Assembly: GCA_030264375.1 (NCBI GenBank)
Contig: JASCQW010000001.1
Coordinates: forward strand, 68,080,035 to 68,144,034
From: Carcharhinus longimanus
Lineage: Eukaryota
Length of the DNA: 64,000 bases
Direction of reading: 5' to 3'
The notes under the pieces were generated by a model. It was not told the origin of the DNA. It did no database searches and was given only the letters and a program-made list of their open reading frames with translations. Positions 311 to 57,881 of the stretch are shown one piece after another (positions within the stretch are counted from its first letter, which is position 1; each line of letters starts with the position of its first letter). A program made the translations under genes and the position numbers.

Positions 311-1554
311 TTTGGAACTCTCTCTACTGACCCATATCTCAGCCTCCAATCTCACCTATATAGCCTTTGTCAGACACCTCCCCCTCCCTCTCCATCCCAG
401 ACTCTGGTCTCTCCCAACTGCTCCCATCCCCAGCCTGACCTCCCTATGCCTCCATAACACTTTATCTACCATCCAACACTACCCTACCCATTACCACCAT
501 CCCTCAATTTGCCTGGCTACAGGGAATGCTAATCAGGTACTGTTGTTAAACTCAGCCGGGCCGGAGAGAAGCCTGTTGTTCCAAGTTTCCTGACTTCTAC
601 CCAGCAATCCTTGCTCCCTCACTGCTGCTGTATAATAATCCAAACCATAGCAATATCATTTTGTAACTGAGTTAAATACTTTTAACATTTTAAAGTTTCC
701 TTGCACTAGTCCCCATTTTCATTTTCTAAATTTTCAATAGCTTTTAAACAAAACAAAATGTTCCTTATAAGCAGCTTGCACTCCATTATTTTACATACTA
801 ACTAAAAAGCAAGGTTCACTGCCAATACATTGTCTCATATTACCTTGAGCCAACACTACTACATTTTTACTCTCAGATGTTTCACATTTGGCTTTTCCGT
901 AATGACATGATTGACTTTCAGATAAAGAATTCACAAAGGTGCAAGGAAATCAAACGCCAACAAGGATGTAAACTGAGATCAATTTAATCATTTATCTAGC
1001 TAATACAACACATTAGCCTTTCAGCTCACCAGCGACAAATTCACCAAATGATAACACAAGCAACTAATGGTAAGTGGGGGAAAAAAATGCCTCTATAAGC
1101 AAATACTGAACTACTCAACAGATACATCATTCTGCCTTAGCACTAGCACACAAACAAATGGAACTGATCTGCATTAACAAAAAAATTTAGTATGATTTTT
1201 TTCCTTCATTCCTTCGCAGCAAATGTGACAAAAATTATTTTCATATGAAGAGTTTATGAAATGTATATCAACAAAGGTTGATAATATCTCGTATACATCT
1301 GCATACATGGCAAAGCATAAATAGAAAACGGCACAGAATTGTACTTCTGTGATAAATGAAATCCAAACTACTTTTAAAATCTGCACCTATTGATGCAAAT
1401 TATTTAGCAAAACAGTGGGAATAGGAATCTTGTTTGCTACAGTTTGAGTTAGACTTGGATCAACAAAATCTATACTGGAATCCTAGCTATGATTACATTA
1501 CTCCAAAGTCTCAGTTCTTTTCAGTGGACAACCAATTATGTTGAATCTGGTACT

Positions 1555-1692
1555 CAATATGGAGATGCCAGCATTGGATTGGGGTGGGCACAGTAAGCAG
1601 TCTCACAACACCAGGTTAAAGTCCAACAGGTTTATTTTGTATTACTAGATTTCAGAGCGCTGCTCTTTCATCAGGTGAGTGAGACTTCTTAC
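1555..1692 (-). mobile_element. Penelope-like terminal-repeat insertion (family A) with minimal hammerhead motif and TSD
   Basis: Minus strand 1644-1677 reads CAC-CTGATGA-A-AGAGC(AGC)GCTCT-GAAA-TC-TA. Flanked by TGAATCTGG(T/C)ACT at 1542-1554 and 1693-1705. Same repeat recurs at 22635, 42558, 51165 and 57684. Confidence 0.75.
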
Positions 1693-2199
1693 TGAATCTG
1701 GCACTATCACTGTGAAATCAATGTTCTTTCAAATGTCCAGTCACTGTGCACAATCCATCAGTAGACTGCTGCGCAGCCAAACACCTTAAAGCAAAGCAGC
1801 CATTGTTTTTGTGCAGCCTATTAGACCGCTGTGCGACAAATTCCCGATTGCTGCACGGCCATAACTTAGAAAATACAGTTTTATTGATAGATACCCAATA
1901 AACGCACTAGACAAAGTTGGGATATTCCATTCCAGTGTAAGGGACTTTTTAATGACATAAGTCATAATTACTAACAAACAACTCCTCTGGCACTGAAAAT
2001 TAACTTTAAAGTATTGTTAGAGAGTTTAAAAGAGTTAAAGTGAACTTTTAGAAGCATAGAATGAGAGTGAAAGATAGAATTAGAAGGTATGCTAGGCACA
2101 GAAGTCGCCTCTCTCCGGCACCATCTTGGGCAAACCACTCTCACTGTCTCCCAGGCTCAAAAAGAAGCAGACACTGCAGGAAGCATGCAAAACATGCAG

Positions 2200-3350
2200 G
2201 CCTACTGCTGAGAGTGAAACAATGCAGTCCCAAGGCCCCCCTCCCCTGCTGACTCCTTGAAAATGTCCAACCTCTGGAAAACAAGCTAGATGAACTCGGA
2301 GCCAGACTCACAATTCAAAACAAACTGAGGGACTGCTGTGTACTGTTTCATAGAGACGTGGCTCACTCCTGCTTCAGTACCCGACAATCAGAGGACTTCT
2401 CAATCCATCGAATGGACTGTACAACAGCCTCAGGCAAAGCTAGGGGAAGTGGGGTCTGCTTCCTAATTAACAGCATCAGATGCCTAGACGTAGCAACATT
2501 GGCAACATTTTGCTCCATGGACATAAAATACCTGATGCTAAAATGCTGCCCCTACTATCTTGCACAGGAGTTCACCTCTGTTATCCTGATGGCAATTTAC
2601 ATCCCACCCCATGCAGACGTGAAGATCGCGCTGGACGAAATATATACCACTATGAATGGCCTTGAGACGAAACATCCCGAGGCTTTGTTCATTGTGACCA
2701 AGGACTTCAATCAGGCCAAATTCAACAGCGTATTATCAAGTTACTGCCAACACATCTCCTGTTCCACTAGAGGCCCAATCATCCTAGACCACTGCTACAC
2801 AAATATCAAACATACCTACCACTCTATTACCTGCCCACACTTTGGCAAATCAGACCACAAGGCTCTGCTCCTGCTCCCAGCTTAGAAGCAAAAACTGAAG
2901 CAGGAGAATCCAAAGAAAGTCTTGCAATGTTGGTCTGAGGAATCAGACGATCTCCTACAGGGCTTTTTGGAGTCAGTGGCCTGGTCAGTATTTAAAAATT
3001 CTGCAATCTGCCTGAACGAGTACACCACTACAGTAACTGACTTCATTAGTAAGTGTGTGGAAGACTGTGTACCAAACAAGCAAATCCGTGTGTTCCCCAA
3101 CCGGAAAGCAGGATGAACAGGGCTATCCATTGCTTGCTGAAGTCCAGGTCTGAGGCGTTCAAGTCAGATGACACTGGCCTACACAAGACAGACAGATACG
3201 ATCCAAGGAGATCCATCAAATGTGCCAAAACAAGGACACCTATGTCAGACTCCTATTTATTGACAATAGCTCAGCCGTCAACACTATTATTCCCACAAAA
3301 CTCATGTCCAAACTCCGTATCCTGGCCCTCGGCACCTCCCTCTTGCAATT
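2200..3350 (+). mobile_element. Rex1/Babar LINE fragment (APE endonuclease plus internally deleted RT piece)
   Basis: ORF 2358-2885 has SGKARGSGVCFLIN..CCPYYLAQEFTSVILMAIYIPPHAD..HPEALFIVTKDFNQ..LDHCY..FGKSDH; a downstream [15 protein letters not shown] RT motif lies near 3230; frameshifts and stops present. Confidence 0.88.
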
Positions 3351-3731
3351 CCTCTCCGGGTGAGCCACAAAGAAAAGCGTGCCCGGACAATTCACCACTG
3401 GGCTCACTAAACACATGTATATCAGCATATAAATAAATGTGAATAAATTATTCAGCCTCTTGCCCATTTCTAGTGAGAGGCTGACCATACCAGAAAACCG
3501 GCTTTTGTAAAATTGCGAGAGCCAAGAAATTGGGCTTGACCTCAATTTCTCAGCTCTCGCGCGATTTTAACGGCTTGCTCTGTCTATCAATGGGTTGGGC
3601 GAATTGGTAAAGGCCTGGTCTGCATGTTTCAGCAAAGATTCTTTGATTTGATTGGTTCAGGAGACACACTGTTGTTGCCCTGTTGGCACATGTACCAGAT
3701 CCCCTGTAGAAAGTACTATTCTGACAGTTGC

Positions 3732-56800: not shown

Positions 56801-56929
56801 CCTTTATCAGGATGAATAACTAATTTCATGGGGCCATCTGTGCTCAAGAGAAGATGTAATACAGCACCAAGTCATACAGCTAAGATGAGGTTCTAACTCA
56901 GTGGCTCAACATTTAAAAGAAGATAAAAT

Positions 56930-57019
56930 GTACCAGAGGGAGGTGGAGGCTTTGGAGAGGGTACAGAAAAGATTTACCAGGATGTTGCCTGGTATAGAGG
57001 GCATTAGCTATGAGGAGAG
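56930..57019 (+). mobile_element. CR1 fragment running into a gap
   Basis: YQREVEALERVQKRFTRMLPGIEGISYEE. Confidence 0.85.
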
Positions 57020-57683
57020 NNNNNNNNNNNNNNNNNNNNNNNNNNNNNNNNNNNNNNNNNNNNNNNNNNNNNNNNNNNNNNNNNNNNNNNNNNNNNNNNN
57101 NNNNNNNNNNNNNNNNNNNNNNNNNNNNNNNNNNNNNNNNNNNNNNNNNNNNNNNNNNNNNNNNNNNNNNNNNNNNNNNNNNNNNNNNNNNNNNNNNNNN
57201 NNNNNNNNNNNNNNNNNNNNNNNNNNNNNNNNNNNNNNNNNNNNNNNNNNNNNNNNNNNNNNNNNNNNNNNNNNNNNNNNNNNNNNNNNNNNNNNNNNNN
57301 NNNNNNNNNNNNNNNNNNNNNNNNNNNNNNNNNNNNNNNNNNNNNNNNNNNNNNNNNNNNNNNNNNNNNNNNNNNNNNNNNNNNNNNNNNNNNNNNNNNN
57401 NNNNNNNNNNNNNNNNNNNNNNNNNNNNNNNNNNNNNNNNNNNNNNNNNNNNNNNNNNNNNNNNNNNNNNNNNNNNNNNNNNNNNNNNNNNNNNNNNNNN
57501 NNNNNNNNNNNNNNNNNNNNNNNNNNNNNNNNNNNNNNNNNNNNNNNNNNNNNNNNNNNNNNNNNNNNNNNNNNNNNNNNNNNNNNNNNNNNNNNNNNNN
57601 NNNNNNNNNNNNNNNNNNNNNNNNNNNNNNNNNNNNNNNNNNNNNNNNNNNNNNNNNNNNNNNNNNNNNNNNNNNNNNNNNNN

Positions 57684-57881
57684 TCACAACACCAGGTTAA
57701 AGTCTAACAGGTTTATTTGGAATCACGAGCTTTTGGAATGCTGCTCCTTCATCAGGTGAGTGGTCAGTAAAGAGCAGCACTCTGCAAGCTCATGATTCCA
57801 AATAAATCTGTTAGACTTTAAGCTGGTGTTGTGAGACTTCCTATTGTGCCTACCCTAGTTCAAAGCCGGCATCTCCATATC
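57684..57881. mobile_element. Family-A Penelope-type inverted pair
   Basis: Minus copy with CAC-CTGATGA-A-GGAGCAGCATTCC-AAAA-GC-TC-GTG (57724-57757), followed by a 5'-truncated plus copy. Confidence 0.78.

Follow-up and report, generated by a model that had tools for sequence, protein, structure and literature searches.

Short hammerhead repeats of Carcharhinus longimanus as ends of two Penelope-like elements

A 64,000-nucleotide stretch of the Carcharhinus longimanus genome (assembly GCA_030264375.1, contig JASCQW010000001.1, positions 68,080,035 to 68,144,034; hereafter the window) contains short insertions of two repeat families, A and B, that carry the known minimal type I hammerhead motif. 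These repeats are the pseudo-long terminal repeat (pLTR), hammerhead and tail ends of two endonuclease-bearing Penelope-like elements (PLEs), because frames for a reverse transcriptase (RT), a zinc finger and a GIY-YIG endonuclease (EN) run into the same hammerhead and tail. The short copies, called stubs below, have non-random ends, and we put at about 0.65 the probability that they are run-off complementary DNAs (cDNAs) of the leader of the element mRNA, primed, at both ends of the target cut, from two internal sites. As a ribozyme system this is known biology, and A and B add new members to a known Penelope-like kind; minimal hammerheads, tails and inverted pLTRs have already been published (PMC4209133, PMC8557442, PMC3846280). 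We did not find a published account of 5' ends that lie non-randomly at the ribozyme edge below a TATA box; the literature titles and abstracts searched, with subscription papers, Repbase and Dfam outside the search, held nothing on start-site run-off for Penelope.

Parent elements, ribozyme and abundance

Upstream of the best matches in either family come a 3' untranslated region, then a GIY-YIG frame that holds the two internal cysteines, then a CX4CxxC finger and an RT. For each family 20 loci of the RT region were examined; many have this hammerhead and tail at their end and others are cut by gaps, and copies coding for RT and GIY-YIG are contiguous with these ends in both A and B. Three of seven translated pieces match PF00078 (A, E 9e-9 and 5e-10, above the curated cut-off; B, E 8e-6, which is under it). 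A GIY-YIG with two cysteines between its motifs (CCHH) is seen in the translations of A and B, and PF01541, the Pfam GIY-YIG family, had no match in either of the two pieces searched. The Atlas look-alikes include a GIY-YIG for B (score 0.97, Pfam share 13-60%) and RTs as well, and a PDB sequence search with the RT piece returned no match. One locus, L210, is a decayed unit, about 3.15 kb long, of pLTR, open reading frame (ORF) and pLTR, and its upstream hammerhead and tail continue into the beginning of the ORF; among 20 loci, no A copy has both direct pLTRs and the whole ORF. The traits of an EN-bearing PLE are present, namely RT upstream in the same element, a C-terminal GIY-YIG, a pLTR-ORF-pLTR unit, inverted 5' copies and a 30-40 bp tail. 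Parents with RT and GIY-YIG, which a preliminary description of the window had proposed to look for at full length, were found for both families, and of the two origins that it had offered, truncated Penelope insertions and dedicated non-autonomous ribozyme RNAs, the first is borne out: the stubs belong to ordinary Penelope elements.

The CX4CxxC linker is present in both A and B. A CX2-5CxxC linker between RT and EN marks Neptune and is shared with Nematis (PMC8557442), and Neptune and Poseidon were the only clades found among vertebrate PLEs (bioRxiv 10.64898/2026.07.22.740005); linker and clades together point to a Neptune type for A and B. Insertion units of EN-bearing PLEs described for the Neptune clade (PMC8557442, PMC3846280) share with them a high rate of 5' truncation, an inverted 5' copy, a tail of 30-40 bp on one end, target site duplications (TSDs) of 8-10 bp and longer, the CX2-5CxxC linker and a pLTR with TATATATA and TCACT.

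The family A majority sequence has a stem I of 3-4 bp (partly broken in one subfamily), CUGAUGA, an extra A, a 5-bp stem II, GAAA and the palindrome AGCU, and the earlier reconstruction of this family was correct. Family B comprises B1, with a U3-A8 pair and the triplet GUC, and B2, with C3-G8 and GUU; its reconstruction fits B2 (the copy at 52324), but not B1 (the type of the copy at 30112), which has the core UUGACAA, the triplet GUC and the palindrome ACGU. At the family level both have a CUGANGA/GAAA/UH core or its U3-A8 variant, stems I and II and palindromic positions 15-16, and self-cleavage is predicted. The type I core, the extra base between 9 and 10.1, G10.1-C11.1, palindromic 15/16 and the U3-A8 variant, described in Schistosoma, are shared with the pLTR minimal hammerheads of metazoan PLEs (Cervera and De la Pena 2014, PMC4209133). 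Positions 3 and 8 of the core are U3A8 in 75, U3G8 in 6, C3A8 in 15 and C3G8 in 19 of all aligned arms. With C3, dinucleotide 7-8 follows a CpG-decay pattern (CG 6, CA 14, TG 8); an origin of A8 by such decay was rejected, since with U3 there are 69 CA and no TG. Compensatory changes in the core and stems, which the preliminary description had expected of a genuine hammerhead, occur as C3-G8 against U3-A8 between subfamilies and as an exchange of G-C for A-U in stem II of A (22 arms); though few independent events, they indicate selection on the hammerhead in the master elements. Of the arms in the genome sample that span the core, 39 of 88 in A and 18 of 57 in B have it intact, and divergence of inserted copies is about equal in the core (1-6.5%) and downstream of it (5-7%), a comparison in which no selection on individual stubs is seen. 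The hammerhead decays neutrally in the stubs.

A and B are not chance repeats, because an A 32-mer occurs exactly 15,679 times and a B 28-mer 8,797 times genome-wide, with no occurrence of either reversed control. Sampling of large contigs at 80 evenly spaced 10-kb stretches (684,413 non-N bases) gave 29 insertions of A and 36 of B, which extrapolates to roughly 97,000 A and 120,000 B copies, or about 100,000 per family. The high abundance predicted from about eight copies in 64 kb is supported by k-mer counts and sampled stretches alike. The corresponding counts in PMC4209133 are 4,000-9,000, against the extrapolated figure here; its text ascribes thousands of single motifs to truncated PLEs, naming no cartilaginous fish and giving no breakpoint map.

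Ends of the copies and inverted pairing

Element positions are counted from N17, the nucleotide of predicted cleavage (= 0). Ends were mapped on 141 A and 131 B arms, selected regardless of their 5' extent (18 A and 10 B are gap-cut on the 5' side) from the random stretches, from 120 loci within the first 16 Mb of contig C1 chosen by exact downstream patterns and from the window; loci ranked by BLAST, arms ending before +40 and arms starting after +25 were left out. Arms were aligned to subfamily references, as a 6-nt subfamily insertion otherwise mimics ends at +4. The 3' ends are bimodal and about 35 nt apart, at +53 to +56 or +86 to +91 in A and at about +60 to +70 or +98 in B. The 5' ends peak at -28 to -37, the 5' edge of the ribozyme, with a mode at -34 in B. 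The per-nucleotide hazard of a 5' end in this interval is 0.050 (A) and 0.114 (B), compared with 0.009-0.012 (A) and 0.005-0.020 (B) across the four bins between +10 and -27, giving rate ratios of 5.0 (A, p 1e-10) and 8.6 (B, p 9e-24) against the neighbouring bins; 34 of the 82 A arms and 53 of the 68 B arms that reach -28 stop within the peak. Among raw genome matches judged by eye, 51 of 100 B1 and about 71 of 100 B2 stop at -34 and 58 of 100 A at -31 to -43, a leading D slightly favouring read-through copies in these counts. The preliminary description had allowed that breakpoints might fall at random within ordinary Penelope copies; the copies do belong to ordinary Penelope elements, but their 5' breakpoints are not random. 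Ends at the cleavage site were considered and rejected: no 5'-end peak lies there in the mapped arms, the hazard near +1 (0.009-0.012 in A, 0.005-0.015 in B) is at background level, and no ends set by ribozyme cleavage were seen.

A conserved TATA box precedes A(-34) by 30 nt at 8 of the 10 B1 and 4 of the 5 B2 loci where TATA was matched, despite differing spacers. In family A, TATATA lies at -66, 30-32 nt upstream of an initiator-like TCACT or CCACT at -34; the canonical spacing from TATA box to start is 30-31 nt. On this layout, transcription of the pLTR likely starts at the edge of the ribozyme, at about -34, whereas the stubs themselves have no TATA box. A rotifer pLTR shows the same arrangement of TATA and TCACT motifs (PMC3846280).

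A peak at this place might also come from ordinary truncation at the 5' end combined with a local hot spot, the RT stalling or the two cDNAs annealing at the 5' edge of the ribozyme, so that it would record a joining preference and not an RNA end. We regard this as unlikely. Candidate annealing sites do exist, the AGCT palindrome in B and GTGAGT/ACTCAC in A; a 4-nt overlap at AGCT is seen in many inverted B pairs, the partner arm accounts for half of the inspected G's that precede A(-34) in A, a second, small 5'-end peak of B at -12 coincides with the stem II hairpin, and self-priming at palindromes has been proposed (PMC3846280). However, simple copies without a partner end at the same base (of the B arms compared, 28 are simple, 34 inverted and 38 read-through), and 8 of the 28 simple B arms have a TSD within 11 nt, four of these overlapping A(-34) by 1-2 nt. 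An RT travelling 3' to 5' is already beyond the structure at -34, the TATA offset is alike in A, B1 and B2, and an identical AGCT at +1 to +4 has no comparable peak. Another source of a fixed end would be a 3' splice site at the 5' edge of the hammerhead, as in D. virilis Penelope, with the stubs made from spliced RNA. The D. virilis intron end was mapped to helix I (PMC4209133), and B1 and B2 have a pyrimidine tract and AG at -34/-33; yet the AG is retained in the copies, which share no upstream exon, A(-34) is abutted by TSDs or partner arms, and family A has no AG at that site. Distant TSDs, 2 of 20 against none in the controls, do not support a spliced host exon upstream of the stubs, and we hold this origin to be highly improbable.

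An inverted partner accompanies 32 of 45 classed A arms and 18 of 46 classed B arms (pattern-picked and not gap-cut, pairs seen from both sides counting twice). The 32 inverted A pairs consist of 24 with a tail arm and a short (tailless) arm, 2 with two short arms, 1 intermediate and 5 gap-censored, one of which looks like two tail arms; the 20 inverted B pairs consist of 12, 3, 2 and 3, respectively. The excess of tail with short over independence has p 2e-5 in A and 0.03 in B. The tailless arm reaches more than 5 nt further 5' in 15 of the 36 pairs of tail and short arms, and in these 15 neither arm contains the other. As each arm in these 15 pairs holds private sequence, neither is a DNA fold-back of the other and both were copied from RNA. 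PMC8557442 and PMC3846280 ascribe the inversions to self-priming and the tail to endonuclease resolution, from which these pairs differ, as does the peak of 5' ends at the predicted start site. TSDs surround 13 of 32 (A) and 7 of 18 (B) inverted arms, compared with 3 of 95 and 2 of 53 controls, and are commoner around inverted than simple copies; a strict test that disregards inverted arms gives 2 of 24 and 3 of 38, close to the controls.

Run-off from the mRNA leader would bring these features together as follows. The RT would be primed within the first ~90-130 nt of the mRNA and run off its 5' end, the peak at -28 to -37 corresponding to the RNA 5' end 30 nt below the pLTR TATA. The two 3' ends may correspond to two RT start sites, by analogy with PAc, a Poseidon element of Anolis, in which two internal starts bracket the tail in vitro, both strands are extended and ribozyme cleavage is dispensable (PMC11167929); the inverted pairing fits such both-strand extension from two start sites. 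Tail and tailless arms stand head-to-head inside one TSD, and both ends of a staggered cut would have been extended on RNA and then joined, a twin priming carried out probably by a dimer. Uncleaved RNA would be the template, and copies reading past -34 may come from longer templates, either tandem read-through or circles. Most stubs would be dead on arrival, and without a TATA box they are probably dead now. L1 twin priming (PMC11702581) likewise involves an inverted insertion, a preserved TSD and RT on both cut ends, but L1 arms span different RNA segments, whereas both arms of an A or B copy cover one short segment, starting from two fixed priming sites.

Several points weigh against the run-off reading. 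PAc is a Poseidon whereas A and B look like Neptune, and the main text on PAc is silent on run-off products and on the 5' ends of genomic copies (PMC11167929). The start at -34 is a prediction from sequence, and the D. virilis Penelope promoter is TATA-less and well upstream of the hammerhead (PMC2377424), so this arrangement is not a general one. Contigs from four sequencing runs presumed to be RNA (X1, X4, X5 and X7) contain family B but reveal no ends, and were left out of the evidence. The 5' peak of A is broad (-28 to -47), and -34 in B is an AGCT palindrome beside a splice-acceptor-like pyrimidine tract and AG. A cap-derived 5' G is a signature of L1 (PMC11702581), and the base before A(-34) in family A genome-wide is G in 973 copies against A/T in 581 (expected share 0.27); of 20 such G's inspected by eye, 10 came from the inverted partner and 4 were ambiguous, B1 has no G excess there (6 of 28 by eye), and a lone extra G is found in none of eight TSD-anchored simple B copies. 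The pair at L225 looks like tail with tail, TSDs are seldom seen around simple copies (3 of 13 and 5 of 28), and the U3-A8 swap is one evolutionary event, whatever copy number carries it.

A more specific form of the run-off reading, for which we see even odds, takes the stubs as a fossil record of the Penelope mechanism, strong-stop-like cDNAs of a capped leader made from two priming sites, one per strand of the dimer, and fused head-to-head. If true, it explains why single-unit Penelope transcripts give stubs only and full copies need tandems or circles, why just one end carries the tail and why solitary minimal hammerheads occur in genomes in such huge numbers. The value of the stubs is mechanistic, bearing on how Penelope makes inverted ends, one-sided tails and tandem-dependent full copies, and they yield sharp predictions: an RNA start at -34, a run-off product of 90-130 nt and one priming site per strand.

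Relation to retrozymes

The retrozyme-like system suggested in the preliminary description is not supported for A and B. Their copies lie scattered or head-to-head, a TATA box is missing from the stubs and no 5' ends cluster at the cleavage site; at subfamily level, all five subfamilies mix long and short copies and none is short-only. Among 272 arms there are 12 same-strand neighbour pairs and one real tandem, and none of the eight window copies is a head-to-tail tandem with a complete hammerhead per unit. Non-LTR retrozymes, reported in one chondrichthyan (PMC7229834; bioRxiv 10.64898/2026.07.22.740005), share the type I hammerhead, the relation to pLTRs and the non-coding nature. They form head-to-tail tandems with a ribozyme per unit and a circular RNA, whereas A and B copies are single or head-to-head and have broken or half ribozymes. 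The real tandem, L146:560-1130 (contig C98 near 90.0 Mb), has at least three head-to-tail units of ~178 nt that run into an N gap; each consists of an A stub from -34 and captured non-Penelope DNA, the core being intact in unit 1 and units 2 and 3 having deletions. This array is a retrozyme-like tandem born from a stub.

Stubs might instead derive from a semi-independent non-autonomous RNA, if solo pLTRs that keep their TATA box were transcribed from -34 and mobilised in trans, the sources resembling short interspersed elements or retrozymes and not the ORF mRNA. Arms extending past -58, mostly without an ORF, number 28 of 141 in A and 10 of 131 in B; pLTRs are reported to be sufficient in trans (PMC3846280), retrozymes have been derived from pLTRs (bioRxiv 10.64898/2026.07.22.740005), and L146 repeats a stub with captured DNA. 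This origin appears quite unlikely to us, however, as no short-only lineage is seen at the level of the five subfamilies, the TATA box is absent from the stubs themselves and head-to-tail arrays are rare. In addition, PAc requires ~55 nt of RNA past the priming site (PMC11167929), which solo copies ending at the tail do not have.

Copies and other features in the window

All eight copies named in the preliminary description lie where it placed them, and its inversions in four of them (1555, 42558, 52324 and 57684) are confirmed. Five TSDs are present as claimed, though with lengths of 13, 9, 12, 13 and 14 bp (1542/1693, 22626/22731, 42546/42655, 30099/30213 and 52310/52552) in place of 9-13 bp. 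The common ..TTACT end also holds, each of the three TSD-flanked A copies having one arm that ends at TTAC(T), +53/+54; the second 3' end, the tail, lies ~35 nt beyond and is reached by one arm each of the copies at 1555 and 42558. As it had stated, the window has no Penelope RT/GIY-YIG ORF: none of 26 stop-to-stop frames of at least 150 amino acids resembles Penelope RT or EN by eye. The CUGANGA half is missing from the copies at 42558 and 51165, and G12 is lost in the copy at 30112 and in the minus arm of that at 57684. An Rfam scan of the window found no hammerhead family at E<=5, and folding of three single copies was in no case better than shuffles (z -0.85 to +0.64).

The first A copy lies between TSDs at 1542..1554 (13 bp, 1 mismatch) and 1693..1705. 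Its main arm, 1557..1681 on the minus strand (-35..+89), runs from the minimal hammerhead (core from 1674) through the tail, and a tiny inverted plus-strand arm, 1679..1692 (+40..+53), ends at the short (tailless) site and overlaps the other by 3 nt. Antisense to family A, as at 1671-1681 on the plus strand, the 5' half of the hammerhead reads CAG-GTGAGT, a perfect splice donor in tens of thousands of copies. The second A copy, 22626..22739 on the plus strand, has a 9-bp TSD (22626-22634, 22731-22739) around a single arm at 22637-22727 (-36..+54). In the third, 42546..42666, with a 12-bp TSD (42546/42655) and no hammerhead core, a minus arm with tail (from 42556) stands head-to-head with a plus arm at 42600-42649 (+5..+54). 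The fourth, 51156..51262 on the plus strand (-15..+91), retains half the hammerhead and the tail, with no TSD found. In the fifth, 57684..57882, a minus arm at 57684-57763 (-36, cut by an N gap) is head-to-head with a plus arm at 57769-57882 (-22..+91).

The B1 copy, 30099..30225 on the plus strand, has a 13-bp TSD (30099-30111, 30213-30225) around an arm at 30111-30212 (-34..+67) that begins exactly at the predicted transcription start. The B2 copy, 52310..52565, has a 14-bp TSD (52310-52323, 52552-52565) and consists of a minus arm at 52324-52422 (-34..+63) and a plus arm at 52418-52549 (about -34..+98), joined through the AGCT palindrome. A degenerate B-related copy at 21838..21943 on the plus strand is alignable only at 21894-21943 (+49..+98), has no TSD and went undetected by the B profile at E<1e-3. 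In both B1 and B2 a conserved pyrimidine tract, CAG and ATG lie just past the cleavage site at +5..+23 (window 30150-30168, for example) and resemble a splice acceptor; a short frame begins at the ATG and ends in the tail, and a deletion at L209 begins at this CAG. Outside the window, a B1 copy at L343 (contig C1 near 16.293 Mb) has flanks that look like an inverted, not a direct, duplication.

Other features of the window include the first coding exon of an FGF20-like gene at 38956-39480 on the plus strand (Pfam FGF; best PDB match FGF20, E 9e-25) and a tRNA-Gly(TCC) at 3732-3803 on the plus strand, called by ARAGORN and Rfam, which is mismatched and possibly a pseudogene. A near-perfect hairpin at 8642-8890 with 113-nt arms, 91% complementary, resembles a miniature inverted-repeat transposable element, and a second, smaller hairpin lies near 23524-23603. 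A 23-nt tandem array occupies 38268-38368, and a 119-nt local duplication is found at 52894-53231.

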